Shown here: positions 5,487 through 44,240 of the stretch, in pieces | How the letters are laid out: each line of letters starts with the position of its first letter | Position numbering within the stretch: position 1 is the stretch's first letter | Virus record (IMG/VR): IMGVR_UViG_3300046096_000928 | Coordinates: 28,554 to 92,553 of that record | Source: a virus | Reading direction: 5' to 3' (one strand) | DNA: 64,000 nt | Made by a program: the position numbers and the translations under genes | Notes under the pieces: model-generated | What the model was told of the DNA's origin: nothing | The model's database searches: none | Seen by the model: only the letters and a program-made list of their open reading frames with translations

Positions 5487-5735
5487 GGCTTTTTTCTATG
5501 CTTATTGTATTTACGATAGAGAAAAGCCAATTGACGAGTTCCTATCAACAGGTTACCTGATATTAGGTTTCCTGTTATTAGGTTACCTGTTAACAGGTTT
5601 TCGATATACATAATTAAGATCAATAAACTCATAATTAAAAAAATAAAGATCAAGTTAATTATGCAAAAAATTTATTTTTTCTTTTTTTCTGTTTAAGAAA
5701 AGAAGCCATTGAAAAATAACTAATTATTCTCTGTA
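5487..5735 (-). repeat. Origin-like module copy A (hairpin, AT/GATC segment, 4 x 15-bp repeats, hairpin)
   Basis: CCT-N6-AGG cores at 5541, 5556, 5571 and 5586; near-identical inverted copy at 43771-44022. Confidence 0.8.
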
Positions 5736-5845
5736 TTGCTGATTATTTAGCTAAATAAGGCTAATGAGGTAAGTAAAGGATTAATCATACTTAAAGAAAC
5801 TTTAAAAGAGTAAAATAATGAAATAAAGCAATGATCAAATAAAGA

Positions 5846-6123
5846 ATGAGAAAAGAGCAAAGACATCCGTTAGCACATATTGACAGGCAAATAGTCAAAA
5901 GTTTTTTTGTGGAAGGAATGAGTGATTTCAATTTGACTGAATTAGCTCGGTTAAAAATCCATCACTATAATTTTTCAGGTGCAACCGATATACGATTCGA
6001 TCTCGATAGCATTATGAATCAATGGGAATTAACTGAAGATTAACTTTACGAAAAAACTAAAGTAATTTATGCGAAAGAGATTTTTCTAATTTCGATTCTG
6101 AGAGTGAAGAAGATTGGAGTTAA
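5846..6123 (+). pseudogene. Cyanobacterial DUF3288 family gene, disrupted
   Basis: QxHP..DRQIV..NL.ELARL.I..F.GA.DI..DL...W.LTE motif; premature TAA at 6041, homology continues LYEKTK and then EEDWS in another frame. Confidence 0.7.
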
Positions 6124-6237
6124 TAAAAAACCTCCTCTGATCGGGAGGTAAAATAATTTAATTAATAGGTTATAATGGAAACAACAAAACCCGACACAGC
6201 TCTGCTAAGTATCTGCAAAGAATCGGGTTACTCAATT

Positions 6238-6960
6238 TTAGGCTTTGGCTAGTGCACCGTATTTTTTATCTAAATAAACTGGCATTTTAAGGGGGACATA
6301 TATTGTCTCCAAACATTGTGCAAAATATCCTAATTCACAGAAGTCATAGGCTTTTATAACCCGTGTCCCACGATGATTGTCAAGATGATAGATAGCCGTA
6401 CTACTTTCAACTGCCCATTCTTTACTACTGCGATACGAACTCCAATGAATACCAACCGACCCATCGAGTAAATCAAATATATCTATTGGATAACCTAGCT
6501 TTTCTACTCGCAACATCAAATAGTTTGCTTTTTCTGCGATGCACCAAGTATTAGGTTGCTTAACTAGATTTTTCTCTAAATCCATAATGCGATCTGAGTA
6601 AACGGTAATTGCTTTTTTAGGTTGCTCAACTGAATAACTACCAGTTTGTCTAATACTTGGTAAGATTTCCTCAAATACCCATTTTTGAAATTGTTTAGCT
6701 GTTTCTAAACGAGATTTAAAGATTAGTTGATAAATACCAGCCTCTTTAGTAATTATCAATACCTTCTCAATTCTTGGCTTGTTTTCCCCATATCTGATGG
6801 TGGGCATTTGATGTAATGTCAAATAATCTGGATCGATTAAGTCTTTTATCGCTGTTTTGGGAGTAGCATAACCTAATGCTTTTGCTACATCGATCGCCAC
6901 TGGATTACCATCTACAAAACGAATATCTTGACTATCAAACTGAAATCGTGTTAAATTCAT
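6238..6960 (-). CDS. Bro-N domain antirepressor-like protein
   Basis: VAIDVAKALGY, EAGIYQLIFKSR..AKQFQKWVFEEILPSIRQTGSY. Confidence 0.88.
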   Translation of the reverse strand: MNLTRFQFDSQDIRFVDGNPVAIDVAKALGYATPKTAIKDLIDPDYLTLHQMPTIRYGENKPRIEKVLIITKEAGIYQLIFKSRLETAKQFQKWVFEEILPSIRQTGSYSVEQPKKAITVYSDRIMDLEKNLVKQPNTWCIAEKANYLMLRVEKLGYPIDIFDLLDGSVGIHWSSYRSSKEWAVESSTAIYHLDNHRGTRVIKAYDFCELGYFAQCLETIYVPLKMPVYLDKKYGALAKA

Positions 6961-7050
6961 ATTAACTCCTAGTTGCTTAACTACTTTTAGGGGTTACGGA
7001 ATGATATACAGCAATTCATAATTAACAGTTATGGGTTGCTTTTCCGTTTC
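6961..7050 (-). promoter_or_regulatory. Structured 5' leader, type A copy 1
   Basis: ACGGAA/TTCCGT outer stem, AGCAA-CC-CATAA/TTATG-AA-TTGCT inner stem, then CCTA...TAGGAG. Confidence 0.65.
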
Positions 7051-7109
7051 TATAACTATTTATATATAAGTCTTTGAAGATTTTAAATCTACTTAATTAG
7101 TCTGTAATT

Positions 7110-8397
7110 CTAACTGTTCAATTTTATTTTGGTTGCTGATATTCTTTGATTAATTATGTTTAAATATTCTTCTTCTTTTTCGATTAGAACATAATTAAAA
7201 CCTGTTTCTATTGCACTTACTGCCGTTGTACCACTGCCTCCAAAAGGATCAAGTACAATTCCATTAGGGGGAGTAATTAACTCGATGAAATATGCCATTA
7301 AATGCCGTGATTTAACTGTCGGATGATCATTATTGACTAATCCTTTACAATTCCTATCAGTTGTGGATGCTTTGGCTTTGTAGTATATGCTATTGACTGT
7401 ATCTGTATCAAAAGGTAAGTTTTTAAAATATCTCGCCGCCGTTCCTTTATCCTCAAAATAAACACCGCTTTTATACGGATTACTTTTAAATTTTACTGAA
7501 TTATCCTTCGTGTATGTATCGTAATTATAGTCACTTGCTCTACTGACAGATTCCCCACTTTGATCGCCAATAACATTAACAGGACAATCTTTAGCGTGAT
7601 TATTTTCTTGGCAGTTAATACCACATGATAAAATTAAATTAGCTGGATAAAGACCGATGTTAGGATTGTGACCATCTTCTGATCCTGTTTCTTTTCCTAG
7701 CCCACTGTGATAAATATTAGTCTTCTCTTTTTTTTGAAAAACCACAAGGCACTCTTTTATTAGTACCAATCCTACCTGCATCAATATTTAATCCGCCCGT
7801 ACCGTGTTTAAGAATATTTCTAACAATACTAGATTCTGAACATTTTTTCTGCCCCAACCACCAACCTTCGATCGCAGGTTTCAACGCAGGAGTTTTCCAA
7901 CCATCCCATCGCTTTGCTAATTCACTTGATGATTTTGTGATTTTAGGGTTATCTTGCCATGAACCACCAAGTGCATTCGTACCATCCTTACATCCCCTTG
8001 CGGATGTAAGGATGCCTATAACCTCTCTTTCTTCTCCTAACATCCGATCAATCTGCTTACTCACATCTTGCCCTTTTTGAAATCCGCCGCCATTTGCATG
8101 GTGTACAATGTCAATAATTCTAAAACCAGCTAATTCTAAAGCCATACCAGTCCAGTGAGAGGTTCTAGGAATACTCCATACTAAACCAATTGCACCAGGC
8201 TTCATGGTACGCATGGCTTCGTTCATTACCTCTGATAACCAATTAATCCAATTAAGCATACCACCCTTGTTATCATCCCATTTCATGGACATAAAGCTGA
8301 TCGAAGAAGGTGGATCAGTAATTAAAGAATCAAAATAATTATCGGGGAATGTTTTTAATACTTTTAAACAATCACCATGCAAAACTTGGTTAATCAT
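7110..8397 (-). pseudogene. N4/N6 DNA methyltransferase split by a 1-nt frameshift in an A8 tract
   Basis: TDPPS in upstream ORF, HPTVK and LDPFGGSGTT in downstream ORF; A8 to A7 at 7728-7735 fuses them. Confidence 0.8.
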
Positions 8398-15310: not shown

Positions 15311-15706
15311 TTAAGTTACCTCTGGTATAACTTGCACATAACCCCAAGTAGTCCCTACTACTACCCCGTCAGGTGATTCTAATTCTAAATCCCAGACAAA
15401 AGTTTTAGAAACAATTAAATCATCTTCATCCCCTTGATACTTTGTAGGCTGTAGTAATGATGTTTGACTAGCTGTTAATTGCAAAGTTATTAATGTATAA
15501 GGATTATTTAGTTCGTCTAATTCAGGAAAAGTCAAAGGCAAGAAAGTAAAAGATGCTAATTCTATTCCCCCTCTAGATAAAAATGTATTCCTAATTTTTG
15601 CACGGGGATTATATGTTGAAACATCATTAGACCACCATATTGGTAAGGTGTATGTCTTACCTTGTATAATTGCTAAGTTTTCAATAAGGTTGATTGCACT
15701 TGCCAT
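15311..15706 (-). CDS. Putative virion structural protein (Ig-like adaptor)
   Basis: IIQG.T, ITL.LTA.QT, WDLEL..PDG.V, G.V.V.PEVT. Confidence 0.55.
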   Translation of the reverse strand: MASAINLIENLAIIQGKTYTLPIWWSNDVSTYNPRAKIRNTFLSRGGIELASFTFLPLTFPELDELNNPYTLITLQLTASQTSLLQPTKYQGDEDDLIVSKTFVWDLELESPDGVVVGTTWGYVQVIPEVT

Positions 15707-15756
15707 AACTAAATTTGTATTACTTTTTGTAGTCTAACATATCGACAAAATCGTAC

Positions 15757-15785
15757 TTGCTAGAATAAATCAAATAAGATATAGT
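15757..15785 (+). promoter_or_regulatory. Repeated promoter P0
   Basis: TTGCTA-GAATAAATCAAATAAGA-TATAGT. Confidence 0.65.
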
Positions 15786-15813
15786 CAAAAATGAGACTTA
15801 AAGAGTAAAAAAT

Positions 15814-16056
15814 ATGAAAATAAATAGAGTTTGTGAAAAGTGCGGGGGTATTCATATAGTAAAGGCTGGACGTAGTAAATCGAATTATCAGCTTTATCAA
15901 TGTCAGGATTGCCGTCATAAATTTAGTGAAACAGGACTAAAAATAGGCAGACAAAAAATTAATTTTAATTGTACTCAATGCGGGACAAAAGCTATTGCTA
16001 AAGGATTATGCAGAAAATGTTACACTAAATCACTCAATAAAAATAAATTAATTTAG
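15814..16056 (+). CDS. Double zinc-finger protein (IS1 InsA-like zinc ribbon plus second CxxC pair)
   Basis: CEKCG..VKAG....Q.Y.CQDCRHKF and CTQC...GLCRKCY. Confidence 0.7.
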   Translation: MKINRVCEKCGGIHIVKAGRSKSNYQLYQCQDCRHKFSETGLKIGRQKINFNCTQCGTKAIAKGLCRKCYTKSLNKNKLI

Positions 16057-16064
16057 AATGTACC

Positions 16065-16093
16065 TTGACAAAATAAATCAAATAAGAGACAAT
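16065..16093 (+). promoter_or_regulatory. Repeated promoter P1
   Basis: TTGACA-AAATAAATCAAATAAGA-GACAAT. Confidence 0.8.
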
Positions 16094-16135
16094 GACAATA
16101 TAAACAAAAAAACAAGTACACAGAGGTTAAAAATT

Positions 16136-16663
16136 ATGAATAACTACGAATTAAAGTTGAACATCGATATAGCTACTATGAGTTACAGAAAACTACAAAA
16201 AGAGTTGAGACGTTTAAAAGAAACATACGGAGTGACAAACATTAAATTAAATTCAAAAAGAACAGTTTTAGCCGCCGAATATAAAAGACTAATGATGATA
16301 GGGCATGAAGAAAAAGAATCTCCAAAACCAACCTTTAACGATCAAGTAGAAATCGTTGCAGAATTAGTAGGGACTAAAGCTACTAACATTTATCAATTAA
16401 TGCGTGATCCTATCTCTTTAAAAGAAGCGATTGAGATTATGTCTTGCGATTTAGACATTGAACCTTATCAATTTGGCATTCTAATTGAAGATACTTTCAA
16501 CATTTGTGATTTAGATTCCTATCTTAATGCAGAGAATGTTGATTTACATTGTTTTCTAAGAGAGATGGCACAAATGACAGAAAAAGAGGTAACAGCAGAA
16601 TGTGAAGCTAGAAATGCAATTACTTATGCAGAAATAGCAAGAGCTTACGGGATCGCTGCTTAA
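16136..16663 (+). CDS. Early hypothetical protein
   Basis: GAGG SD before ATG 16136; N-terminal motif shared with 17140..17958. Confidence 0.6.
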   Translation: MNNYELKLNIDIATMSYRKLQKELRRLKETYGVTNIKLNSKRTVLAAEYKRLMMIGHEEKESPKPTFNDQVEIVAELVGTKATNIYQLMRDPISLKEAIEIMSCDLDIEPYQFGILIEDTFNICDLDSYLNAENVDLHCFLREMAQMTEKEVTAECEARNAITYAEIARAYGIAA

Positions 16664-16695
16664 AATACGAAAACAAATAATACGGAGTAATAACA

Positions 16696-17028
16696 TTGAT
16701 TGATAAAGCTATTAATAGCTTTATCAATCAATGTGAAAAATTTACTTCCTTTGTTAAAAAAACAAAAGAGCAAGTAATAGAAATGGCAAGTAATGATAGT
16801 ACTATGGAATCTATTTTTGAATTAGTATCTAATGAACAAGGAATCACACAAAAAGAACAAATTAAATCTTTAACTGCTCAGTTTTCTCTTAAAGATTATC
16901 AATCAATCTTATTTGAGATTTTGCCAAACTATACCTTATTTCAATTCTTATTAGATCGGACGGATTTAACTGATGAAGAAGCTTTATCAGAATTAGATTG
17001 TTATCACCAATTACAACCTCCTATTTAG
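16696..17028 (+). CDS. Early hypothetical protein
   Basis: GGAG SD, 110-aa ORF. Confidence 0.5.
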   Translation: MIDKAINSFINQCEKFTSFVKKTKEQVIEMASNDSTMESIFELVSNEQGITQKEQIKSLTAQFSLKDYQSILFEILPNYTLFQFLLDRTDLTDEEALSELDCYHQLQPPI

Positions 17029-17044
17029 ACATAGCTTTAATTAA

Positions 17045-17107
17045 GATTTATTTTGTCAAAAAAATATTTTGAAATACCTTGACAAAATAAATCAAATAAG
17101 AGATAAT
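17045..17107 (+). promoter_or_regulatory. Repeated promoter P2 with upstream inverted copy of its -35/spacer
   Basis: GATTTATTTTGTCAA (17045) is the reverse complement of TTGACAAAATAAATC (17079); -10 GATAAT. Confidence 0.8.
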
Positions 17108-17139
17108 AGTAATATACAAACAAAACAAAAGAAAAGATT

Positions 17140-17958
17140 ATGACTTATAAAGAATTGCAACAAGCATTAAAACAGTTCAAAGTGGAAGGTTTAACATCAG
17201 TTAAGTTAAATGCAAGTCAAGAAGTATTACAGGCTGAATACACTCAAGTAATCGAACAAATAGAAATTGACAAGCAACAACAAACAAAAGATGGTTTATT
17301 AGCAGTTGATCGTTTTATTGAGATTGTAGAAAAAACTTTAACTGTTAACCTTTATTGTGACTATAAGATAAATTGCTCAATGATTTTGGAAAATAAAGAG
17401 ATAACATTTAATGAATTAATTTCAAAAATAGCCAAAGATGCGGACGTAAACAGAATAGATTTACTTTTAGCAGTAGAGCAAAACATGGAATATGATTTTA
17501 GTTTTAATCTGACTGATTATCGTTATAATTCAATTGAGTACTTTTTAGAAGTCTTTATTTTTCATGTAGTAACAATCGAAAAAAGATTAAAAGAAATAAC
17601 TCCCCCCGTTTTAGAAATAGTAACTCCAGAAAATGATCCTTCTTTAGATACGGCTATTAAATCTTTTACAAAGGCTATTAATCATGTATTTAAACGATTT
17701 GGTAGCAATAATTTTACTACTGAGGAATCTTTAAGATTATCAATGGGTAATGAGGTGACAGTCAATGATTTTATTAAATTTCTTAATCTAAACACTGGTT
17801 TTGATCTTACTGAATTTATGGAATACTTAGAATATCATCTTGAGGATCAATACCAATATTTGATACAATATTCAAGTATTGATTATGGTAAATATCCGCT
17901 TAAAATGATTTTACAAGATTTTGCTTATTCTATTGATGTTTATCAGTTAATTGCCTAA
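17140..17958 (+). CDS. Early hypothetical acidic protein
   Basis: MTYKELQ..LK...G.T.VKLN N-terminus. Confidence 0.6.
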   Translation: MTYKELQQALKQFKVEGLTSVKLNASQEVLQAEYTQVIEQIEIDKQQQTKDGLLAVDRFIEIVEKTLTVNLYCDYKINCSMILENKEITFNELISKIAKDADVNRIDLLLAVEQNMEYDFSFNLTDYRYNSIEYFLEVFIFHVVTIEKRLKEITPPVLEIVTPENDPSLDTAIKSFTKAINHVFKRFGSNNFTTEESLRLSMGNEVTVNDFIKFLNLNTGFDLTEFMEYLEYHLEDQYQYLIQYSSIDYGKYPLKMILQDFAYSIDVYQLIA

Positions 17959-32742: not shown

Positions 32743-33094
32743 AATTCACTACGATTACTCTAATATTTTTCTCTTTAGCTATATTAATCATGTGTTGAGT
32801 ACCTTTGCTTACACCATTCCAAAAGGCAATTAGCCCGTCTGCTATTTCAGCCATTTGTTGATTTCTTTTATACCCAGCTGACTTACCATAACGATCCCAG
32901 TCTGCTGGATATTTTAATATTTCAAATCCATTCTCAATAGCGTATTTTTCTCCTAAACTATCCGCTCCTTTAGCACGACCACTAATCACTGTGATACCGT
33001 TATTTTTCTGGTTAATAAGTAGCTGATCGCACTTAGTTTTTAATAAATCATAATCAGAAAAATAACGAGTGCCACAAATAATTACTTTAAACAT
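32732..33094 (-). CDS. SLOG/YspA-like (DUF2493) protein
   Basis: VIICGTR.F.DY, SG.AKGAD.LGE, ADW..YGKSAG..RN..MA, SKGT.HMI. Confidence 0.9.
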   Translation of the reverse strand: MFKVIICGTRYFSDYDLLKTKCDQLLINQKNNGITVISGRAKGADSLGEKYAIENGFEILKYPADWDRYGKSAGYKRNQQMAEIADGLIAFWNGVSKGTQHMINIAKEKNIRVIVVNYEK

Positions 33095-34607
33095 CTTGTT
33101 TATAATTTTCTTTTTGTTGTGATACTTTTTCTAATTCTAAACCTAGATAACCGATATGTAAAGGATCAATACTTGGGTTATCTTTGGCGATCTCTCGTAT
33201 TAAAATTAATGGATTTTGTCCGTAATATTCTTTTATCAAATTATCCTGTTTGTCAAGATGTAATACTTTAATTTTTTCTTTATATTTTATTTCCTGATCA
33301 TATTCAATAATAAAATTACCAACAGGATCGGCATAAGTTATTTTTTTATTCCCATAATATTGAGTTTCAATTAAACTATCGGCATTTTCAAAACAATCAT
33401 CATAAATGTGTGCCGATTGACTAATTGTTATTAATGGTGCTAACTCAAGTTTACTATCTACATTGTCTCTAATGTGTACTTGTAATGCCCTTAATCCCAT
33501 CGCATTAGCTACCCAAGCACTAAACATATCATTACTACGAAAAGTAGCCGTCATGCTTAATTTATTATCGATTATACGCACCCATATATGATTAAGACAA
33601 GGTGACCCCCCATGTTCATGGTCACTATCACCAGCATTACGTCCATAACGTGCTAATTCAAAAGGCAATGATTCAGGCATACCACAATCATCAATTACTT
33701 TAATTGTATTACGTTCACAACCGCTACCAGAATCCCATAAATTCATAACGGCACTAGCCGAATCAGTTTCTTTTTTTAATTTGTCGATTACTTCTTTAAT
33801 TTGATCCTTGCCAAACCATGAACGTAATCTTTGACCATAAGTATATTTAACACCTTCTTTATACGGAGCATCTTCTAACATTTGTGGTAGATAATTAGTA
33901 ATATAGTTTTGATCGACAGGTAAATAATTGGGAGTTGGGAAATAAAAATCGCTAGGTTCATCTGTAATTATTGCTTTTAAATCAATTAATTCTTGCCATT
34001 TACCATCATATCCAGTTGGTCTTATTGTGCCATTAGTTCTTATTCTATGAATAATTTTTACCCATGTATCGGCAATAGTTTTACCTGTTACTGTATGGGA
34101 ATAAATATTACTTGGGTTTATTGCTGTTTTACTTTCTTTTATTTCAAATTCGTAATATTTACGTTTCTTACGTTTGGCAAACTGTTTCTCATATATCCCC
34201 ATAGGCTCTTGATACGTCACCGTAATCGAATTTCTTAATTCTTCTAAGGCTTTTTTAGTTATCTCTATATCTAAGTATCCTTTAATCTTTGAATTAATCT
34301 CCCATTTATTGTTTTCTTGCGTAATACCGTACTTGAAAAAATCAAATAGACATTTACAACTACCACTATTTTGATCTTCTCTAGTGGTGCTTAGAACCCT
34401 CAATTGTGTAATCTGAGGATTTAATAATAAATTCCTAATTAGAAAATTTATTCCTCTTGAAGGGCTGTAAAGATTCCCTATTGCCGCATATTCTTTAGAT
34501 GCTAACTTTTTGGCGATCGCCTCTTTAGGTGTCCAGCCAGTGACAATAACTAGATCATCGCCTGTCCCATAAATTAATTGATTCGGTTTATGAATTGCTT
34601 TATACAT
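33087..34607 (-). CDS. thyA: Thymidylate synthase, long cyanobacterial type with N- and C-terminal extensions
   Basis: YTYGQRL, PCLNH, RSND...W.AN and SAHIY. Confidence 0.85.
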   Translation of the reverse strand: MYKAIHKPNQLIYGTGDDLVIVTGWTPKEAIAKKLASKEYAAIGNLYSPSRGINFLIRNLLLNPQITQLRVLSTTREDQNSGSCKCLFDFFKYGITQENNKWEINSKIKGYLDIEITKKALEELRNSITVTYQEPMGIYEKQFAKRKKRKYYEFEIKESKTAINPSNIYSHTVTGKTIADTWVKIIHRIRTNGTIRPTGYDGKWQELIDLKAIITDEPSDFYFPTPNYLPVDQNYITNYLPQMLEDAPYKEGVKYTYGQRLRSWFGKDQIKEVIDKLKKETDSASAVMNLWDSGSGCERNTIKVIDDCGMPESLPFELARYGRNAGDSDHEHGGSPCLNHIWVRIIDNKLSMTATFRSNDMFSAWVANAMGLRALQVHIRDNVDSKLELAPLITISQSAHIYDDCFENADSLIETQYYGNKKITYADPVGNFIIEYDQEIKYKEKIKVLHLDKQDNLIKEYYGQNPLILIREIAKDNPSIDPLHIGYLGLELEKVSQQKENYKQDV

Positions 34608-34660
34608 CTTTTTCTTTTAAAATTTTGTTAAAATATGAGAAATTACAAACAAGCTACAAA

Positions 34661-34855
34661 ATGAACAATAAAAAAAATTTACCACATTTCGACTTTGAAT
34701 TAAAATTAGAGCAAGAGTTTAGAATAAGAGAAGCTAAACTCTTGGTTTCTCTTATAAGTAGGGAAGAGTTAGAACAACTTTTTATTAGTATTTTTACCCA
34801 TAAATTGAGGCAGGATAATCAATTAACATTGATGTATAAAAAATCTTTTCTTTGA
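34661..34855 (+). CDS. nblA: Phycobilisome degradation protein NblA-like
   Basis: 64 aa; ELKLEQEF.I......ISREE....F motif; own TGTTAAAAT promoter at 34626. Confidence 0.75.
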   Translation: MNNKKNLPHFDFELKLEQEFRIREAKLLVSLISREELEQLFISIFTHKLRQDNQLTLMYKKSFL

Positions 34856-34856
34856 T

Positions 34857-35087
34857 TTATGGTAATCCTTTTACATTAAAGCAATGAGTTATAAAACGCT
34901 GATACTTTAAATAAAATTCTCTGAGTTTCCCATCAAGAAATCTGCCCCTATTCATTTCTGGTTTATTTAAAATGATATGAGAAATAGAAAGTAAGCTATT
35001 TAATTCAGTAATTAATTCATGCTTATTTGCCCTTTCTATTTCCAATATTTCCATCATAATAGGAGTCACTTTTTTATCCATCGCCAA
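34857..35087 (-). CDS. Hypothetical protein
   Basis: 76-aa ORF. Confidence 0.4.
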   Translation of the reverse strand: MAMDKKVTPIMMEILEIERANKHELITELNSLLSISHIILNKPEMNRGRFLDGKLREFYLKYQRFITHCFNVKGLP

Positions 35088-35341
35088 TATGTTTAATATC
35101 TATTTTTCTTTAGTTGAATCATTAGTTTCGAGATATTTAATGGCTTCTAAATCCATGATTACTCCTATTTTGTTTCTCAATCTTCACAATAATGTTCTAA
35201 AAGAAATTCTATACATTTTCTGTAGTCATTATCGGATTCCATCTTTTTTGCTAACCAGCTATAGCACTCTTCAGAAGGTTCGATTTTATCTATATTTTTA
35301 TTAGGCAATTGCTCTTTATCTTTATCCATCATTTTTTACTC

Positions 35342-35656
35342 CTATTTTGTTTGTTTTTCTTTTAATTCTTTAAGTCGATTAGTCTTATCTAATGCCTCGA
35401 AATAATCATCATAATAATTTACATTAGTAGTGCCTTCTCTACATTTTAGATGTCTTAAATCACGCATAAAACCATGATTAAAGAATAAACTAATTTCTAT
35501 TTTTGCCTGTTGTATTTCACAGCCTAAAAATCGTTCATATTGTTTACTCACAATAAAATAACCAGCTTCTCTATCTTCTAAATGATAAAAAACACCTGTC
35601 TGATCATTTTCTTTAATTCTTTGCCATTTTAATAAAATTTGTTTTAATTCTTCCAT
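35342..35656 (-). CDS. Hypothetical protein
   Basis: 104-aa ORF. Confidence 0.5.
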   Translation of the reverse strand: MEELKQILLKWQRIKENDQTGVFYHLEDREAGYFIVSKQYERFLGCEIQQAKIEISLFFNHGFMRDLRHLKCREGTTNVNYYDDYFEALDKTNRLKELKEKQTK

Positions 35657-35657
35657 G

Positions 35658-35855
35658 TTATTTACTTTCTTTTTTTACTAATTTGTATTCGACATTCTCT
35701 TTAGTTAGATTTATGTCTCCTTTGCATATTCCGATTAAAAGCAAAGTTATTGAACCTTTTTTACCCCATACATAATCCAAGTTAAAAGCTATTTTTCTTA
35801 ATCTTTCTAACATGTCAGCATCTAATGCTATTGTGTAGTTATTTTTTTTTGCCAT
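35658..35855 (-). CDS. Ribbon-helix-helix protein resembling the N-terminal domain of cyanobacterial WYL regulators
   Basis: YTIALD....L..IA....WG...SI..L...I..G.I. Confidence 0.55.
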   Translation of the reverse strand: MAKKNNYTIALDADMLERLRKIAFNLDYVWGKKGSITLLLIGICKGDINLTKENVEYKLVKKESK

Positions 35856-35885
35856 TTTTTATTTTCTTATTTTTTGTTCTTCTTT

Positions 35886-35929
35886 ATCATATCAAATACA
35901 TTGTAATATTACAATGTATTTGATATGAT
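35886..35929. repeat. 44-bp perfect palindrome upstream of RHH gene
   Basis: ATCATATCAAATACATTGTAAT|ATTACAATGTATTTGATATGAT. Confidence 0.85.
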
Positions 35930-35989
35930 GATTTATAAAGAAAGAAAACAAAGATAACTTATAAATATAAAATGTTAGATAAATAAAGA

Positions 35990-36298
35990 TTAAAAACTCA
36001 AAATTTTGGCAACTAAATCGTCAATAAAAGATAAATCTAATTTGAGTAATGGTTTAGATATATCCTCTTGTGGTGGATTACCCATCGCCCAATGTAAAAA
36101 TCGATATTGTGGATATTTTTCATTGAGTGTTTTTGTAATTTCTTTGACTAAGGTTAAAGTATAAACGTGTTTAGTTTTTACGAAACCCCTATCGATAGGA
36201 TAATCATAGCCATCTTGTGCTGTAAAGGTTGCCATGGTTTTATATCTAACGCCAAATAATTGGATGTGTCCGTTACGTTTTAATGGTATTACTTTCAT
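35990..36298 (-). CDS. Hypothetical protein
   Basis: 102-aa ORF. Confidence 0.5.
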   Translation of the reverse strand: MKVIPLKRNGHIQLFGVRYKTMATFTAQDGYDYPIDRGFVKTKHVYTLTLVKEITKTLNEKYPQYRFLHWAMGNPPQEDISKPLLKLDLSFIDDLVAKILSF

Positions 36299-36330
36299 GG
36301 TTTTATATTAACTGTGCATCAACTTAATTC

Positions 36331-36528
36331 TTAAATACCCACAATGATATGTTTATCTATTCCTTCAAGGAAGACATTATTCTTAACGAAATGTTGTATA
36401 TAAAAAGGTATAACGCTACAACCGCTTTTATCTTTATACCTTTTTATATAATTAGGGTAAGCTACAAAACAAATCGTATTGTTATTGCGAGATACTTCGT
36501 GAAATTCTTTTAGGATTTCTTGTATCAT
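36331..36528 (-). CDS. Hypothetical protein
   Basis: 65-aa ORF. Confidence 0.4.
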   Translation of the reverse strand: MIQEILKEFHEVSRNNNTICFVAYPNYIKRYKDKSGCSVIPFYIQHFVKNNVFLEGIDKHIIVGI

Positions 36529-36792
36529 TTCGACTGTAACCAGAGCATCCCCTACTCTAAAAATACTACATCTTTCATTACCTGTAAATGAGTTTTACTG
36601 ACATCAAATAAAGAAGGCTTGAGATCAGCATATTTTACTACATATTCATAACCAAAACATGGACGGAAATTATATCTTAAATAATCTCTTGGTACTTATG
36701 TAGGTAAATCTAACCGATTCACTTTTTCCCAAAACCGATCCCTTTTGCTTTTCCCATAATTCACTCCTATTATTGTTTTATTTAATCGCCAA

Positions 36793-36927
36793 CTAATCAT
36801 CATTTTGATCTAAATAATTAAGCAATAATTCAACTACCAAAGTATTTAATTGCTTATTATCTTTTACCAATTTTGCTTTTATCTCAGAGTGAAACTCCGC
36901 ATCTATTTTTAAATTTATATTTTTCAT
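36793..36927 (-). CDS. 44-aa RHH (ParG/CopG-like) protein, missed by ORF track
   Basis: MKNINLKIDAEFHSEIKAK......LNTLVVELLLNYL. Confidence 0.6.
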   Translation of the reverse strand: MKNINLKIDAEFHSEIKAKLVKDNKQLNTLVVELLLNYLDQNDD

Positions 36928-37047
36928 AGTACGTTTATATTTCATTCATATTTCTATTTTACCAAACAACGTAATAAAAGAATATTGACAAGGCTCAAAA
37001 CCATTGAGATTACGTTAAAAAAGTTTTCACCCTTGTCAGGAATTAAG

Positions 37048-37509
37048 TTAATTAAAATTTTCTAATTGTTTTAAAAGCCATTTTTTACGTTTAATTAAAG
37101 TTGACTTTGGGGTAATAGGAACTACCTCACAAGAATCTGATTCCCCCATGTGACAACTTTCTTTATTCATCTCCTCTCCACTACCAAAAGCTATATATTT
37201 GTCTTCATTAATTAACCAATAATCCTGTTTTAATCCGAACGTATAAATATCACCTTCATAGCCCCATTCTATTTCTGTTAGCGTCCCGTTATCGAAAAAA
37301 TCAGCTATTTTTGGTTTTATACCTCTTTTCTCTATTAACTCAGTATAAGCATCTAATTCTCTTTGAGTTTCTTCTAAATAATCTGTCAACAATTTTTTTT
37401 GTAATTTCCATTCATCTATTTGTCTTAATTCTTCATCTATTATTTTTAGTTTCCGTTCTAATACGGCGATAGAAAATAATAATTGTTGTTTTTCTTGCTC
37501 TAAACTCAT
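37048..37509 (-). CDS. Hypothetical coiled-coil protein
   Basis: 153-aa ORF. Confidence 0.5.
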   Translation of the reverse strand: MSLEQEKQQLLFSIAVLERKLKIIDEELRQIDEWKLQKKLLTDYLEETQRELDAYTELIEKRGIKPKIADFFDNGTLTEIEWGYEGDIYTFGLKQDYWLINEDKYIAFGSGEEMNKESCHMGESDSCEVVPITPKSTLIKRKKWLLKQLENFN

Positions 37510-37841
37510 TCTATTTTTAATTTAAATTATTCTGTAACTTCAACAGTTTCCGATTTGCTAAATCAACTACTCCACTATTTTCACTTTGTCTGCAACCTTC
37601 TAACCATTCTAAAAAAATTTCTATTGGAATACCGTTTTGATTATCTTACAAACATTTTTCTGCTAATATGTAGTCATTTTCATTCATAATTTATTTTTAT
37701 TGATTATTAATTAGTTTGCTAATGAATAATTTGATGATGGCTTATCCTATTTCGATTGAGATAGAACAAGCGTTAAAATGTTTCCCCCCCACTTAGACGT
37801 GACAAGATAAATTGTTACTCATAATTTACTCTTATTAATTA

Positions 37842-40028
37842 TTAATTGGCACAAGAGACACATTCTTCTTTAAAGTTATCTTTTTGCACTACACGCACAT
37901 AATAGATTGCTTTACATTCTGATTCCCAAGCATTAAGCATTACCTCATAAATATCTTTTGCTGTTAATGCTTCCTCTTTATATACACCTTCATTGAGGTT
38001 AAACACTAATTCCATTGAGATGCCAGTATCTATCCATTTTTGTATTTCAGAAACAGCTTTGACTACCACGTTTTGATCTAAGGTTTTATTTTCTCGGTAA
38101 TACCAAAGTGAATCTTTGATAAATGGTGGTGCAATTGGTACAGTGCCTTTACTCCATTTATCATAATAGAATTTACTGTAACATGGCAAAATACTAGCTG
38201 TACAACCTTGTACTAAACTTGATGATGTATTAGGGGCGATCGCCATTAACATAGAATTTCTGATCCCATTATCTGCAATTAGATCGAATAATGATTCCCA
38301 GTCTTGACTGCCGTTTTCTTCAAACCATTCTAAAGGTTTACTCAAAACTAATTCTTTTGACCAATCACTACCTTCATAAGCTAAATACTTACCCCGTTCA
38401 CCAGCTAACAAAGCCGAGCCTAAAATACAGTTATAAGAAATTATCTCAAATAATGATCCTATAGCTTCGGTATTTTTATAAGATTGTCCATGTTTTGCCA
38501 AATAATCAGCTAAACCCATTGCTCCTACACCTACAGTTCTATAACGATTGTTATGAGCTTTTGCATCTTCAAATGGTGGAGTGGTTAAATCAATAGTATT
38601 ATCTAATAATCTTACTGCTAATTGAGATAAGTCTGCTAATTCTTCTTCACTCTCAATATTAGCTAAATTTAAACTAACTAAGTTACAACAGTGGGCATAT
38701 TGTCCAGAAGCCACATTCGAGAAGCTTTCGACGCATAAATTTACTTGGGGGATATACCCATCATGTTTATTGGCATTATATTTATTGATGGTATCTTTAA
38801 ATGCAATATAGGGCATTCCCGTTTCTAATTGAGATTTCATTATCTCTTTAAATAACTCTCTCGCATTTATCGTTTTTCTTGTCTCTAGTGAATCTGAGTA
38901 AGTTTCTAAAATACTATAAGCTGAATCGAAAAGTTCCCCCCATAATTCAGATAAATCAATATTGAATTTTGTTTTAATTTCATAAGGATCGAATAATGTC
39001 CAATCTTTATTACTTTCAACTCTTCTCATAAATTCATCTGAAATGATTACTTGGGGGAATACATCATAAGCTTTACGTCTTTGATCACCGTTTTCTGTTT
39101 GCATTTCTAAGAATTCAAGTATATCATAATGCCATATATCTAATCCTATTGTAACCGCACCCGCACGTTTCCCCCCTTGATTGACGGCGATCGCCGTATC
39201 ATTCAGTAATTTGACCCATGGTAAAACACCACCACTTGCGTTAGCTTTACCCATTACTTCTGCCCCCGTAGCTCGAATTTTACTTAGATTAACACCAACC
39301 CCACCACCATTTTTACTGATACGAGCGGTATTGGTTATCTCACGGTAAATACTTTCTAAACTATCATCGGCTGTAATAATAAAACAACTGGTTAGACTTC
39401 CGTTAGGTACTCTTAGATTAGCTAAAATAGGAGTTGCTAAAGATATTTTACGTTGTGCAATAGATAAATAAACCTGCTTGGCAAACTCTAAACGATATTC
39501 TTTGATTTCAGGTAAAGCTAAAAGTAAGGCACAAGTCAAAAAAGCCTCTTGTGGTAATTCATTAGGCAGTAAATAACGGCTGGTAAGCAGTAAAGCACCA
39601 GCATAATCATAATCAAAATCATAAGTTTTATCTATCCAAGTAATGGCCTCTTTTAATTCTTCATAAGAATAATCTTTTAACCTTTGGTCATAAATACCAT
39701 CATGTATTTTTGACTGTAAAGAACGTAAATAACCTTCATAGCCATAACCACGACTGACCAAATTATCTTTCCATAATGACCACATCAATAAACGACCTGC
39801 GACATAACGATAATCTGGATCATCTAAAGTACATTTTTCTAAAGCACTTTGAATTAAACTTTCTTGAATCTCACGAGTTGTAATGCCGTCTCTTAATCTT
39901 GCTTTTAAACCAGCTTCTAAAATTAACTCATTTACGTCTAAATCTTCACAAGCCCAAGTAGCTACTTCTCTAATCCTACCAATCTGTAAATCTTCTTTTT
40001 GTCCGTTGCGTTTGACTACTTGAATCAT
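37842..40028 (-). CDS. nrdA: Ribonucleoside-diphosphate reductase alpha subunit (class I, ATP cone)
   Basis: VVKRNG ATP cone, SCF, NLCVE, APNTSSS, YY pair and terminal CVSC. Confidence 0.95.
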   Translation of the reverse strand: MIQVVKRNGQKEDLQIGRIREVATWACEDLDVNELILEAGLKARLRDGITTREIQESLIQSALEKCTLDDPDYRYVAGRLLMWSLWKDNLVSRGYGYEGYLRSLQSKIHDGIYDQRLKDYSYEELKEAITWIDKTYDFDYDYAGALLLTSRYLLPNELPQEAFLTCALLLALPEIKEYRLEFAKQVYLSIAQRKISLATPILANLRVPNGSLTSCFIITADDSLESIYREITNTARISKNGGGVGVNLSKIRATGAEVMGKANASGGVLPWVKLLNDTAIAVNQGGKRAGAVTIGLDIWHYDILEFLEMQTENGDQRRKAYDVFPQVIISDEFMRRVESNKDWTLFDPYEIKTKFNIDLSELWGELFDSAYSILETYSDSLETRKTINARELFKEIMKSQLETGMPYIAFKDTINKYNANKHDGYIPQVNLCVESFSNVASGQYAHCCNLVSLNLANIESEEELADLSQLAVRLLDNTIDLTTPPFEDAKAHNNRYRTVGVGAMGLADYLAKHGQSYKNTEAIGSLFEIISYNCILGSALLAGERGKYLAYEGSDWSKELVLSKPLEWFEENGSQDWESLFDLIADNGIRNSMLMAIAPNTSSSLVQGCTASILPCYSKFYYDKWSKGTVPIAPPFIKDSLWYYRENKTLDQNVVVKAVSEIQKWIDTGISMELVFNLNEGVYKEEALTAKDIYEVMLNAWESECKAIYYVRVVQKDNFKEECVSCAN

Positions 40029-40114
40029 TATTTTCTTTGTTTACGGTTAATATTTTTAGTGTAAAATCTTAATTTTACTTATGTTATTATACTATTAAAC
40101 AATGTTATTTTTCT

Positions 40115-40798
40115 ATGATTAAATATAAAGCGATTAAAAATACTTGGCTTAAAAAAGAGAATATACAAGCCTCCGATTTACCCAATAATAAAAAAATATT
40201 TGTCCCTACTGGTAAACATTTTAATGTGATAAAAGAAACTGAAGTTATTGAGACTGATGTTTTTCAAATTGATTTATCTGATAATGCTGGACGTTGGTTT
40301 ATTTTTACTAAAGATTGGGATATGGATAGAGTGGTAAAAGTTCCCTTAAAAGTATCTGATAATATTGATTGGCAAGATATGAATCAACCTATTAGTAAAT
40401 ATTTTACTGTTAGAGAAGTTACTAATAATGATGCTAGACGTATTCCTAATAAACAACATCAAGTAAATGTTTTACGATTAGCTAAAGAATTAGATTTAGT
40501 ACGGGAAGTTTACGGTGCTTTGATGATTACCTCTTGGATGCGACCAGCACGTGCCGATGGTTATTCTTTTGATATAAACAAAATGGTAGGCGGTGCATCT
40601 TTAAGTCAACATCGAACTGGTTTAGCTGTCGATCTTTATCCTCTCAATTACCCTTTAGTTCAATTCCAATCTGAGATGCTTACTAAATGGCATGGGAGTG
40701 TAGGCAAGGGTCTTAGTAAAGGATTTGTTCATTTAGATGCTAGACAGGGCTTCCCTTGTTTTAATAAAGGGTCTGCTCTTATTGCATGGAATTATTAA
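40115..40798 (+). CDS. Peptidase M15 endolysin with cyanobacterial N-terminal domain
   Basis: ITSW.R, VGGA..SQH..G.AVD and FVHLD. Confidence 0.85.
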   Translation: MIKYKAIKNTWLKKENIQASDLPNNKKIFVPTGKHFNVIKETEVIETDVFQIDLSDNAGRWFIFTKDWDMDRVVKVPLKVSDNIDWQDMNQPISKYFTVREVTNNDARRIPNKQHQVNVLRLAKELDLVREVYGALMITSWMRPARADGYSFDINKMVGGASLSQHRTGLAVDLYPLNYPLVQFQSEMLTKWHGSVGKGLSKGFVHLDARQGFPCFNKGSALIAWNY

Positions 40799-40810
40799 AA
40801 AAAAGAAATT

Positions 40811-41044
40811 ATGTTTAGAATAATCTTAACTTTAATAACGTTAGCTCTAATCGCCACCTCCTGTAACCACAATCAGAAAAATAAAAATAATTATCATTTT
40901 GAGCAAAATCGACCTGATATTGGCTTAGATATTGACAATGATTTAATTATTGATAATCCACCGAGTGTCAAAATACCTGAACCATCTTTTTTATTTTTTT
41001 ACGGTTTAATCCCACTTTTATTTGTTAGTATAAAGAAAACATAA
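40811..41044 (+). CDS. Small lipoprotein with PEP-CTERM-like C-terminal anchor
   Basis: Hydrophobic signal ending ATSC; KIPEPS, TM helix, then KKT. Confidence 0.65.
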   Translation: MFRIILTLITLALIATSCNHNQKNKNNYHFEQNRPDIGLDIDNDLIIDNPPSVKIPEPSFLFFYGLIPLLFVSIKKT

Positions 41045-41054
41045 TTACAAAAAT

Positions 41055-41261
41055 ATGACAAACGTAACACTACCCGCATTTGTTGAAAATATTGAAAAAG
41101 GTTTTATTATAGTTGGCGATACTTTTATTGATGCAGCTAAAATCGTTCTTATTAGTAAAACTGAAACATATGTTAGCATCCGCTTTACTAATGGGTACGC
41201 AGATTTTGAAGGGGCAGAAGCTGTTGAATTTCTTAATAAATATAATCAATTCTTAAAATAA
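41055..41261 (+). CDS. Hypothetical protein
   Basis: 68-aa ORF. Confidence 0.5.
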   Translation: MTNVTLPAFVENIEKGFIIVGDTFIDAAKIVLISKTETYVSIRFTNGYADFEGAEAVEFLNKYNQFLK

Positions 41262-41285
41262 TAATTTACTCCCAAAATATTTTTT

Positions 41286-41660
41286 TTACTCACTTTCTTT
41301 TAGTGAGTTTTTTCGTACTTCTAGTTTTGAGATCGCCTGTTTACTTTTTTGCAGTATAGTAGTAACTTTCTTGAAATCATTTTCATCTACATTCAGATTC
41401 ATTAAGGATAATCCTAAGTTATTTAATTCAGTGGAGATATAGACTATTTCCTGCCATAAAGGATAGTATTTCCATTGTTTAGTTAATTTTCCTTGAGATT
41501 TAATTTCTTGTTCGATCAACTTCATAGTAATTTTATTCACTCTTATTTTATAATTAGGACATATCACACAATTATTTTCACTACCTGCTATTAAACAGCA
41601 GGTTAATTTTTCATTTTTCGTTGCTTCTTTGTAACGATTTATCACTTTTTGTAAATACAT
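41286..41660 (-). CDS. Hypothetical protein
   Basis: 124-aa ORF divergent from recombinase. Confidence 0.45.
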   Translation of the reverse strand: MYLQKVINRYKEATKNEKLTCCLIAGSENNCVICPNYKIRVNKITMKLIEQEIKSQGKLTKQWKYYPLWQEIVYISTELNNLGLSLMNLNVDENDFKKVTTILQKSKQAISKLEVRKNSLKESE

Positions 41661-41806
41661 TTGCGTTTAACTTTTTAAAGTATAATCGTTAATTTTACTG
41701 AAAAATAGTTTATCACAAAGCCGTATCAAAAATAAAAATCATAGTGAAACTTTTTCATGTAATAACGACTAATGATATAGAGATCATTAATAGATGCTAC
41801 AAAATT

Positions 41807-43201
41807 ATGAAAGTATGTTACGCCCGTGTTAGCAGTAGAGAACAAGCCTTAAATAGTAATGCTTTGATACAACAGCTTGATAGATTAAATAGTCAAGTTA
41901 TTGACAAGGTTTATTCCGATGTCGGCTCTGGTAGAACATCAAAAAGATTAGCTTTTAAGGAATTAATTAAAGATATTAAAAAAGGCTTGATCTCTGAATT
42001 GGTTGTTACTCGTATGGATAGACTTATGCGTAGTTTAATGGCTCAAATTGAGTTTGTTCTACTTTTAGAAAAAGAAAATATAATTTTAACTGTCTTGGAT
42101 CAAGCTGTTGATTTTAAAACCGCTTCTGGCAAGTTACAACTAAATATTTTAGGTGCTTTCTCTCAAAACTTTTCTGATGATCTATCCGAAAAAGTAAAAC
42201 ATGGTTATGAATATTACCGCAAGACTAAAAAGACAACCCGTAGTATCTTAGGTTACAAAATTGTTAATAGTCAAATATTGATTGACGATGATCCTTTTCT
42301 TTGTTTATGGCAAAATAAATCTGAATATTCTAAATATAAAATAGCACGTAAAGTTATCGATTTTTATCTGGAAGAAAAAAGTATTTCTGGTTGTCTCAAA
42401 AGATTAAATATTTATTTTGGGTTACAGAAAAGTAATTTTAATCCCCGTGCTTATAAATCACTTCACTTTTCTGAGGCTGGAATAAAATGTTTCCTTACAC
42501 ATCCTATTCTGAGAGGCTATCTAGTTTATTTTCAATATGATAAAAATAATCCTACTCAACTTTACCCTAATAATCATCAACCTATTTTATCTGAGTTAGA
42601 ATATGCCGAAATTTTAAGGATACTTGATCATAATAAAAAAGTAGGTGGTTATGGCAGTAAAAGTAAAAATCCTTTTACTGGTTTTATTTCTTGTCAAACT
42701 TGCTTATCTTCCATGCGGTCACTCAAAATAAAACAAAACCCTTTCAAGTATTATTCTTATTTTCGATGCCAGAATGCCCGACAACAAGCCTGTTCTAATT
42801 ATAAATCTGTTCGTGTTGATAAAATAAAAGCTATTTTATTTCAAACTTTACAATCAAAATATCTTGAGTTAATCAATCTTACTACTGCCATAATCCCCAC
42901 TGATTCTATTGAGATTCAATCTTTACTCAGTCAAATCAACTCTTTATCTTCATTACCTAATAATCCCGCTATTGATCAGGCGATCGCCAATATTCAATTG
43001 CAAATACAAAATTTACAATCTGAACATTCTAAAAATAAACTAATGCATTCGGACAATGAAGATTATTTAAAAAGTATTTTTTCTTCTACTAGCTTTTGGG
43101 AAACTTTATTACCTCATCAACTTAAAGAAATTGTACAGAAATTGGTTAACAAAATTTTAATCTTTGACGGCGAAGTTATTGCGGTAAAATTGAATCTTTG
43201 A
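41807..43201 (+). CDS. Large serine recombinase (XisF-like)
   Basis: YARVSS, D..SG....R, VTRMDRL.R, zinc ribbon CQTC...C...C and coiled coil. Confidence 0.92.
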   Translation: MKVCYARVSSREQALNSNALIQQLDRLNSQVIDKVYSDVGSGRTSKRLAFKELIKDIKKGLISELVVTRMDRLMRSLMAQIEFVLLLEKENIILTVLDQAVDFKTASGKLQLNILGAFSQNFSDDLSEKVKHGYEYYRKTKKTTRSILGYKIVNSQILIDDDPFLCLWQNKSEYSKYKIARKVIDFYLEEKSISGCLKRLNIYFGLQKSNFNPRAYKSLHFSEAGIKCFLTHPILRGYLVYFQYDKNNPTQLYPNNHQPILSELEYAEILRILDHNKKVGGYGSKSKNPFTGFISCQTCLSSMRSLKIKQNPFKYYSYFRCQNARQQACSNYKSVRVDKIKAILFQTLQSKYLELINLTTAIIPTDSIEIQSLLSQINSLSSLPNNPAIDQAIANIQLQIQNLQSEHSKNKLMHSDNEDYLKSIFSSTSFWETLLPHQLKEIVQKLVNKILIFDGEVIAVKLNL

Positions 43202-43520
43202 CACTGAACAAGAGGTAACATGGAATCTGACAAGACAGGAAATCAGCAAACAAGAAAATTCAATGAAGTTATGTGGAAACTACAGACAAACTCAAAAGAC
43301 AAAACAAAAAGTCTTACTGAATTTATTGAAGAAATACGAACTCAAGCTAAAAAAAACAAGGCGATAATAGAAGCTTTGCTGACGTTATAGAAGACATACA
43401 AAATCAGGCAAGAGAGCGAGGTTTAACTGAAGAAATCTTACAGGTTATTTTAGAAAAAGAATAAATCTTTAATTCTGTATTTTCATAGATTACAATAGTG
43501 TTACATTTAAGTTGTAATCT

Positions 43521-43768
43521 ATGAATCAAATCATTAATGCGGTGGCACAATACTTGATCCTTTTGCTGGTAGTTTTACTTTGGCGATCGTCTGTTTAGAA
43601 TTAGAACGTAATTATATTCGTCTTGAAAAAGATAAAGGTTATTTTGAGATTGGTCAAGAAAGAATTAAAGAATGGCATGAAGCAAAAAAGCTACTTTATT
43701 CGATTGATTTCTTGTCTTATGAGTTAATCATCATTCACAACAAAATAAGCCTTAATTTATCTATTTAA
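43521..43768 (+). pseudogene. N4/N6 methyltransferase remnant (N-terminal 7 aa joined to C-terminus)
   Basis: MNQIINA, then GGTILDPFAGSFT.AI.CLEL.R...EKD..YFEIG.ERI. Confidence 0.75.
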
Positions 43769-43770
43769 AC

Positions 43771-44022
43771 ACTAAGAGAATAGATAATCATCTATTCTCT
43801 TAGTGGCTCTTTTTCTTAAACAGAAAAAAGAGAAAATAAATTTTTGCATAATTAACTTGATCTTTATTTTTTTAATTATGAGTTTATTGATCTTAATTAT
43901 GTATATCGAAAACCTGTTAACAGGTAACCTATCAACAGGAAACCTAATATCAGGCAACCTGTTGATAGGAACTCGTCAATTGGCTTTTGTCTATAGCTAT
44001 GCCAAGTAGTATAGACAAAAGT
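43771..44022 (+). repeat. Origin-like module copy C
   Basis: Flanking hairpins; repeats at 43913, 43928, 43943 and 43958. Confidence 0.8.
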
Positions 44023-44094
44023 CTATATATGATTTCTTGTTAATTTACCTTTATTCTTTTTTTTAGTTAATCTAATTATGCTTACGTGGATAAT

Positions 44095-44240
44095 ATCTAA
44101 AAAAGAATAAATATCTTTGCACAATTAATTTGATCTTTTTTTTTGCTTATGCGTTTTTTATTATTCATGTGTATCGAAAACGTAATAAGAGGCTTTCTAA
44201 CAATACATTTTTGTAATTAGAAAGCCTCTTATTACGTTGG
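44095..44240 (+). repeat. Origin-like module copy D (diverged)
   Basis: TTTGCACAATTAATTTGATCTTT and GTGTATCGAAAAC; CGTAATAAGAGG...CCTCTTATTACG inverted pair. Confidence 0.65.

Follow-up and report, generated by a model that had tools for sequence, protein, structure and literature searches.

A ~300-bp non-coding cassette repeated in a freshwater cyanophage genome: a possible promoter/operator/terminator unit

Short non-coding cassettes consisting of a promoter and a stem-loop terminator are known from T4-type phages, where these elements, termed PeSLs, occur many times per genome near variable cargo (PMC2839356, PMC4122927). Repeated intergenic sequences are also present in the genome of the halovirus HF2, nine of which were assayed in that study for promoter activity by reporter fusions (PMC8707807). 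Here we describe a repeated element in a 64,000-nucleotide (nt) stretch of viral DNA, hereafter the window, which corresponds to bases 28554-92553 of the 92.5-kb IMG/VR virus record IMGVR_UViG_3300046096_000928 (coordinates marked “genome” refer to the whole record). The record holds six copies of a non-coding cassette of ~300 bp, all of them intergenic: A-D in the window and E and F upstream of it. We tentatively favor the reading that the cassette is a portable, forward-transcribed promoter/operator/terminator unit and not the origin of replication or decoy for the replication initiator that a sequence-only reading of the window had proposed.

In kind, the cassette appears to be closest to the PeSLs of T4-type phages and to the promoter repeats of HF2. 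As with PeSLs, composite cassettes with promoter-like and terminator-like parts are repeated between small gene units. There is, however, no sequence relation between the two, and the putative promoter of the present cassette has no recognizable sigma-70 consensus. To our knowledge, PeSLs carry neither an array of dyad repeats nor an invariant 13-mer, and the present cassettes have both. HF2 differs in being an archaeal virus with repeats of 29 and 58 bp, for which the abstract names no operator-like array or terminator (PMC8707807). The ~300-bp length, the lineage-specific dyad array, the invariant 13-mer and the location at positions shared between related phages distinguish it from these systems, with neither of which it has any sequence in common.

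Copies, anatomy and positions of the cassette

The four modules previously noticed in the window were recovered at the same places. Box1 (TTTGCATAATTAACTTGATCTTT, up to three mismatches) matched four times in the window and not once in 100 shuffles, and the box2 pattern TGTRTATCRAAAAC matched four times compared to a shuffle mean of 0.21. Tandem Repeats Finder located period-15 arrays at 5547-5599, 24137-24184 and 43910-43971, in A, B and C, respectively; the period had been called exact in A-C and degenerate in D, and arrays do exist in the former three, whereas D has no array at all. CCT-N6-AGG words are concentrated in the cassettes, which contain 16 of the 25 found in the record (~6 would be expected in total). 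The near-identity of A and C over ~200 bp was borne out (203 nt at 90% identity, or 193 nt at 95%), and A, C and E are mutually 92-95% identical. It was likewise correct that the distal hairpins of A and C differ in sequence with both able to pair, and that copy B has ACG ends (ACG replaces AGG in three of its four units). The count of four copies stands for the window but not for the record, to which E and F belong, and the extent given for the modules is too short, with A reaching ~130 nt further upstream, to ~5821.

The anatomy of the cassette (Table 1) is based on an alignment of 13 distinct copies from the record and its relatives, which are four IMG/VR contigs (G001-G004) with homologous cassettes and portals that are 80-86% identical. 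Most copies have a conserved upstream part of ~130 nt that includes the palindromes GATTAATC and TTATTTAGCTAAATAA and leads through a pyrimidine run and an A-tract to box1. The spacer between box1 and box2 is AT-rich, 29-35 nt long and contains one or two more TTGAT(C/T) words; at a fixed distance before box2, all copies have a -10-like hexamer (i.e., AATTAT, TATTAT or, in G003 and G004, TATAAT). Three to five dyads per copy, each of 12 bp and separated by 3-bp gaps, make up the array that is present in 12 of the 13 copies, all but D, and the resulting 15-bp period is kept where there are no indels, which is the case in most copies. In F there are three dyads, and an altered box2 gives a perfect 19-bp stem. 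The motif AACTCGTCAATTG is likewise found in 12 of the 13 copies, with one change in G1 and only AACTCGTCA in B, and is absent from D. The best-conserved part across phage lineages is the 13-mer AACUCGUCAAUUG. Hairpin 2 varies in sequence by lineage with its pairing kept (CTTTTCTCTAT/ATAGAAAAAAG here, GAAACTTATC/GATAAGTTT in G003 and G004), and what the copies that have diverged most (B, D, G4_x and G1) retain is box1, the -10-like hexamer and box2. Downstream of hairpin 2, related phages have a second (C)GTCAATTG(G/A) word and another hairpin, so that the motif-plus-hairpin unit is itself repeated.

Three positions of the cassette are common to the relatives. One lies 170-400 nt upstream of the portal gene (B, G4_port and G1_port), one is occupied by a tandem pair right behind the serine integrase gene and convergent on the gene of a 189-amino acid (aa) protein (C and D; G4_t2 and G4_t1), and one is divergent from the DUF2213 gene (E and G4_x). 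The genes downstream of the non-tandem copies of the record encode lysozyme, the portal, ALAD and a methyltransferase. A and F are located in segments absent from the G004 contig, together with the cargo hemB, lysozyme and DUF3288. This association with cargo would suit a passive repeat or recombination scar, spread by homologous recombination or gene conversion and mainly shuffling gene cassettes as PeSLs do, with no specific biochemical task for the dyads. The high identity among A, C and E compared to 45-90% for proteins shared with G004, the tandem duplication at different positions in G003 and G004, and the methyltransferase genes or fragments near every copy of the record are consistent with such a scar. 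However, three positions are conserved across lineages, and the persistence of box1, box2 and the 13-mer in old, diverged copies points to functional selection; a mere scar is highly improbable. The methyltransferase pieces, of the N6/N4 type, lie ~0.1-2 kb from the cassettes (window 7717-8397, 23052-23096, 23527-23850 and 43540-43690; genome 1960-2829 and 10655-11527) and belong to a repeated methyltransferase/Bro-Rha cassette.

Table 1. Coordinates of the cassettes, their parts and neighboring features (window numbering unless marked otherwise)
Feature	Coordinates	Strand	Remarks
Cassette A, whole	5487-5821	-	upstream conserved part, A-tract, box1, box2, four dyads, motif, hairpin 2
Box1 of A	5645-5667	-	TTTGCATAATTAACTTGATCTTT
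Box2 of A	5597-5610	-	TGTATATCGAAAAC; -10-like AATTAT directly upstream; putative start region
Array of A	5541-5597	-	four 12-bp dyads, 15-bp period
Conserved motif of A	5528-5540	-	AACTCGTCAATTG
Hairpin 2 of A	5487-5528	-	13-bp stem, one C-A mismatch, weak U tail
Phage lysozyme gene	4994-5428	-	~60 nt downstream of A
Cassette B, diverged	23992-24218	+	box1 24066-24088, box2 24124-24137, array 24137-24193
Hairpin of B	24179-24210	+	loop is conserved TAGGAACTCG, then AUUUUGCU
Portal gene	24464-25936	+	3' of B; own TATAAT and HIP1 site
Portal TATAAT region	24395-24463; L010 2945-3002; L008 2910-2978		
Cassette C	43770-44023	+	upstream terminator hairpin 43770-43805, box1 43843-43865, box2 43900-43913, array 43913-43969, motif 43970-43982, hairpin 2 43982-44023
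Cassette D	44095-44240	+	box1 44116-44138, box2 44168-44181; perfect 22-bp hairpin 44179-44238 replaces array
Cassette E	genome 10242-10438	+	divergent from DUF2213 gene, upstream of split N6/N4 methyltransferase
Cassette F	genome 548-727	-	upstream of truncated ALAD/hemB gene at contig start
Second motif sites in relatives	L055 1140-1160; L049 ~1410-1440; L008 2846-2863; L010 2872-2891		
Serine integrase gene	41744-43201	+	directly upstream of C/D; same arrangement in G004
189-aa protein gene	44288-44857	-	convergent on C/D; lead to tandem Cro/C1-type helix-turn-helix fold
Control region of 189-aa gene	44858-45378; L168 1060-1520		repeated ATAGCCAT(T/C)(G/A)AT words
DnaD-like/HTH_36 replication initiator gene	46173-47075	+	DnaB helicase gene 47072-48379 follows
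Second promoter cassette	15756-15790, 16064-16098, 17078-17112, 21795-21829, 22486-22520		

Strand bias of the tail and a putative promoter

In 10 of 12 copies, the forward strand of the tail behind the motif gives the more stable fold, and the U residues after the best tail hairpin, summed over the 13 copies, number 45 forward and 25 in reverse. B, G4_port, G4_x and G3_t1 have a plain hairpin with a U-tract, i.e., a stem-loop terminator on the same strand, as PeSL-like cassettes do; the tail is weak in A and F. Because of this folding bias, the excess of U and the clear U tracts, these features indicate that transcription would run forward through the cassette and end at hairpin 2.

In the arrangement that we propose, the A-tract and box1 are placed where a UP element or activator site would be, and RNA polymerase would start inside box2, downstream of the fixed -10-like hexamer, and read forward across three to five dyad sites (or the one long hairpin of D). 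The dyads would be read at the DNA level by a lineage-specific, phage-encoded regulator whose occupancy may gate outgoing transcription. The transcript would then run past the invariant AACUCGUCAAUUG and end fully or partly at hairpin 2. Where the U tail is poor and lysozyme or hemB follows, after A and F respectively, the cassette is probably the promoter of that gene, whereas at the three positions common to the relatives the output would be mostly terminated. Phage lambda has a comparable late unit, in which PR', 6S RNA and tR' constitute a short terminated leader before the lysis and head genes, and its nut sites have a phage-specific element beside a linear motif. The proposed cassette would resemble this unit in having a promoter that leads into a short terminated leader, with a phage-specific element beside a conserved motif, and would differ from it in that no Q or N homologue was found among the ~75 proteins scanned, the copies are several and not one or two, and the variable element is DNA-like.

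Position and conservation weakly suggest that the cassette contains a promoter. In cyanobacteria, promoters frequently have no -35 element. A consensus scan detected two forward-strand matches that end at box2, namely TTGATC-18-TATTAT, in cassette B, and TTGATA-17-AATTAT, in G4_x. The four non-tandem copies of the record all point at a gene start 60-260 nt away, the lysozyme and hemB starts being within 60-130 nt of A and F. The reuse of a TTGACA-17-GATAAT cassette elsewhere in this phage also counts in favor of the promoter/operator/terminator reading. This second cassette, TTGACA-17-GA(T/C)A(A/G)T with a near-identical spacer, is present in 4-5 copies before small open reading frames (ORFs), one of which encodes a KilA-N protein.

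Several observations weigh against this interpretation. The consensus scan detected no sigma-70-type promoter in A, C, D, E or F, and the counts of promoter-like matches were never above those of shuffles. Divergent genes flank three of the four non-tandem copies, which would face a gene start whichever way they were turned, and C and D run towards the 3' end of a convergent gene with no gene downstream on the same strand. The portal gene of three lineages comes with a conserved TATAAT of its own, located behind a HIP1 site/GGCGATCGCC palindrome and 35-45 nt from the start codon; B therefore need not drive the portal and may be an independent unit. No binding protein for the dyads was identified, and with only three lineages compared, the concerted change of the dyads could result from gene conversion alone.

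Some of these observations would fit a multicopy stand-alone small RNA (sRNA) of ~110-130 nt acting in trans on an mRNA of the host or the phage, with a 5' dyad hairpin, AACUCGUCAAUUG as an unpaired seed and an intrinsic terminator. A 5' stem, a conserved unpaired 13-mer and a terminator are typical of many trans-acting sRNAs, and the 13-mer is the part best kept between lineages. The sRNA would also account for output that looks terminated at the common positions, for a portal with a promoter of its own and for the lack of a downstream gene on the strand of C and D. However, neither phage genome contains a complement to the seed apart from the opposite strand of the cassettes and single weak matches, and no Rfam family matched. 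The 5' hairpin, moreover, lacks the G-U tolerance and strand bias of an RNA and is lost in three copies, and we consider an sRNA unlikely.

The array also overlaps a small ORF that begins with an ATG in box2, in which the 15-nt units would encode xLxxG pentapeptides of a small hydrophobic peptide, perhaps resembling a type I toxin. In 10 of 13 copies, from both lineages, no stop interrupts the frame for 31-60 codons, and 10 of 13 have the ATG. In contrast, two copies begin with TTG and one with ATC, and a stop codon follows after 15-17 codons in G1, G4_x and D. Variable columns are distributed evenly over the codon positions (17/20/20), and few of the varying codons (2 of 20 and 4 of 16) differ by synonymous changes alone. 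The ORF has no Shine-Dalgarno sequence, and the putative transcript start is at or after the ATG. Among 5.8 billion proteins searched, the window's own copy was the sole homologue. The copies do not show the conserved start, intact frame and synonymous excess expected of a small protein or type I toxin, so the earlier concern that the modules might be translated small genes did not survive these coding tests, and a functional peptide is barely credible.

The dyad array and the replication genes

The core of the dyads resembles CCTGTTAACAGG in this phage and TCTATCGATAGA in G003 and G004, and G001 has yet another core. Dyads 1 and 4 and dyads 2 and 3 pair into a long hairpin (RNAfold, RNAalifold), for which z is between -4 and -9 in most copies and short of significance (-0.3 to -1.9) in B, G1 and G4_x. 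A-C and G-U mismatches are balanced, both within units (13 vs 10) and in the long hairpin (15 vs 16), and the folding energy of the array has no forward or reverse bias. Since the palindromic units change together, apparently “compensatory” changes arise automatically. Given the balanced mismatches, the lack of strand bias, the loss of the hairpin in three copies and the concerted change of the core, the dyads appear to behave like dyad-symmetric DNA sites for a phage-specific protein and not like a selected RNA helix. The structured RNA that the sequence-only reading gave as its alternative fits the tail hairpin, in part, and not the dyads. Its view of the repeats as protein-bound sites is supported by the balanced mismatches, the lack of strand bias and the concerted, lineage-wise change of the dyad core, but the origin or decoy role attached to it is unsupported.

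At the gathering score, Rfam 15 had no match in the window, and the region 43650-44350 gave only generic hairpins far below threshold; no tRNA or tmRNA was found. A ToxI-like type III antitoxin RNA was rejected, its units being ~34-45 nt compared to 15 nt here and the downstream genes encoding no endoribonuclease toxin, and CsrA-type GGA sites, CRISPR-repeat mimicry and a P1-type pac site were dropped as the matching features are absent in the sequence. A lone perfect palindrome of the G003/G004 dyad type, CCTATCGATAGG, is located inside an ORF at 36188-36199 and may be due to chance.

The neighbor of C and D, the 189-aa protein, has a low-confidence AlphaFold model (pLDDT 56). It is 80% identical in G004, and its putative recognition helices are identical. 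Because these helices are the same across lineages with different dyads, and because the repeats in its own control region differ in kind, the 189-aa protein is unlikely to be the reader of the lineage-specific dyads. This non-coding control region separates the 189-aa gene from the replication operon and is 420-520 nt long and 79% conserved; the small ORFs called in it look like T-rich noise. Other candidates for a dyad binder are the Bro-N, KilA-N and Rha proteins and a small helix-turn-helix protein encoded at 19014-19319. No ParA/ParB pair, sigma factor or Q/N-like protein was found among the ~75 proteins scanned.

Cis-acting sites that are spread over a phage genome and lie apart from the gene of their binder are familiar from the dispersed C1 operators of P1 and the four dispersed sopC-like partition sites of N15. 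The present sites could similarly be dispersed DNA sites for a genome-wide function, either an immunity repressor network or a centromere-like array. The dyads do look like DNA-level sites, lineage-specific and confined to the cassettes, in a genome that consists of many small transcription units on both strands. However, there are only 4-7 sites for dozens of units, and the tandem helix-turn-helix neighbor keeps its putative recognition helices between lineages that differ in their dyads. The absence of a ParA/ParB pair among the ~75 scanned proteins, and a serine integrase that makes plasmid-type partition unexpected, also speak against such a network or array. The sites of P1 and N15 are, moreover, single and short compared to 300-bp composite cassettes, and no matching repressor or partition protein was identified here; we regard a role of this type as very unlikely.

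The proposal that the modules are origins or initiator-binding iterons, with C/D as the primary site, the others secondary or titrating, and the AT-rich spacer as the unwinding element, draws on the lambda origin. That origin has four dyad-symmetric iterons, an AT-rich region and a palindrome, and lies inside the O gene. The four dyad repeats, AT-rich stretch and palindrome of the cassettes resemble it. The initiator gene at 46173-47075 indeed has no iteron-like array inside it or nearby, as had been stated, and this counts in favor of the proposal. C and D, ~2 kb upstream of the genes for the initiator and DnaB, coincide with the minimum of cumulative GC skew in both genomes, and the initiator is only ~50% identical between two lineages with different dyads. 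On the other hand, the skew tracks gene orientation, its slope reversing again over a minus-strand block at genome 80-84 kb, and so its minimum is not independent evidence for an origin. Judged by eye on the alignment, the N-terminal winged-helix part ranks with the better-conserved stretches of the initiator, and since initiator and cassettes are found together in only two genomes, their covariation has no statistical power. The genome is ~70% AT, so the AT-rich spacer is not distinctive as an unwinding element.

The positions and the parts of the cassette agree poorly with an origin as well. An origin would be expected once or twice, in or beside the initiator gene, whereas there are six copies, A, B, E and F lie 20-70 kb away, and only C and D are near the replication genes. 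Relatives have retained the portal and DUF2213 copies at the same positions, far from these genes. D, the copy nearest to them, has no array, and the array is not the part that survives in diverged copies. The best-conserved parts are promoter- or terminator-like, with a strand bias that an origin would not need. In comparison with the lambda origin, the cassette has its parts in another order, a period of 15 bp and a strand-biased, terminator-like tail, and it is found outside the initiator gene, in six or more copies. An origin or decoy role is therefore quite unlikely, although C/D, beside the replication genes, might conceivably serve as an origin. It is unlikely, too, that the arrays are dispersed sites of one phage-specific protein that, from a few conserved positions, coordinates replication initiation or genome-wide silencing with transcription, in which case the cassettes would be a multi-site origin/operator network with a portable promoter and terminator.

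Relatives, host and biological meaning

The HIP1 octamer GCGATCGC is present in 21 copies in the record and 21 in G004, compared to ~0.1 expected in each, which is a strong signature of a cyanobacterial host. The record, with a G+C content of ~30%, encodes ALAD (hemB), PhoH, ribonucleotide reductase, a DUF3288 protein and a pentapeptide-repeat protein, and the public runs that contain it are freshwater metagenomes. Based on the excess of HIP1, these genes and these runs, the virus is an uncultivated freshwater cyanophage. Host-like genes in the window are those for the pentapeptide-repeat protein (2375-3082, minus strand), DUF3288 (5846-6043, plus), a thymidylate synthase-like protein (33087-34607, minus) and the DNA polymerase III beta clamp (57002-58321, plus).

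The virus has no close cultured relative, the best portal match among deposited phages being 27% identical. Other assemblies hold portal homologues at 45-75% identity, and searches with the 189-aa protein and the portal alignment returned only G001-G004 again. Further members of the cassette family were found neither in IMG/VR nor in 185,579 prokaryote genomes nor in JGI metagenomes. Blastn of the C/D region against deposited phages and a scan of IMG/VR with the exact box1 pattern gave no match, and once an nhmmer profile had been used as a filter, a three-dyad pattern and a 16-mer around the conserved motif gave only chance matches beyond the four relatives. A 19-mer matched once in the prokaryote genomes, inside coding sequence, and 13 times in the JGI metagenomes, of which nhmmer kept one weak match (E 0.007, ~40 nt) and none was cassette-like. 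Contigs of four freshwater metagenomes over 34000-53999 were short, with many strain variants, and gave neither a clear joint between cassettes nor usable depth.

G004 is rated 100% complete by CheckV. Its contig ends (1-1155 and 64791-67011), however, are within 1-2 kb of two of its own cassettes, and it yielded no homologues of the capsid, baseplate and other tail genes of the record; the contig is probably an incomplete fragment, and no conclusion can be drawn from the spacing of its copies. A 37-kb insertion between cassettes E and B was dropped for this reason. G004 also contains a giant ORF of 5182 aa (15311-30859), and one of at least 960 aa is located at 61120-63999, open at the end of the window.

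Very little is known about the control of transcription and replication in freshwater cyanophages. If the promoter/operator/terminator reading is true, the cassettes would be a ready set of cis elements for such phages, and the lineage-specific operator could help to find its regulator. The cassette may also help to explain the common control of single genes scattered on both strands. Should the arrays instead be bound by the initiator, the genome would be a rare example of a phage with several origin-like sites, at positions common to relatives. In either case, long near-identical copies can break or mis-join metagenome assemblies of such phages.

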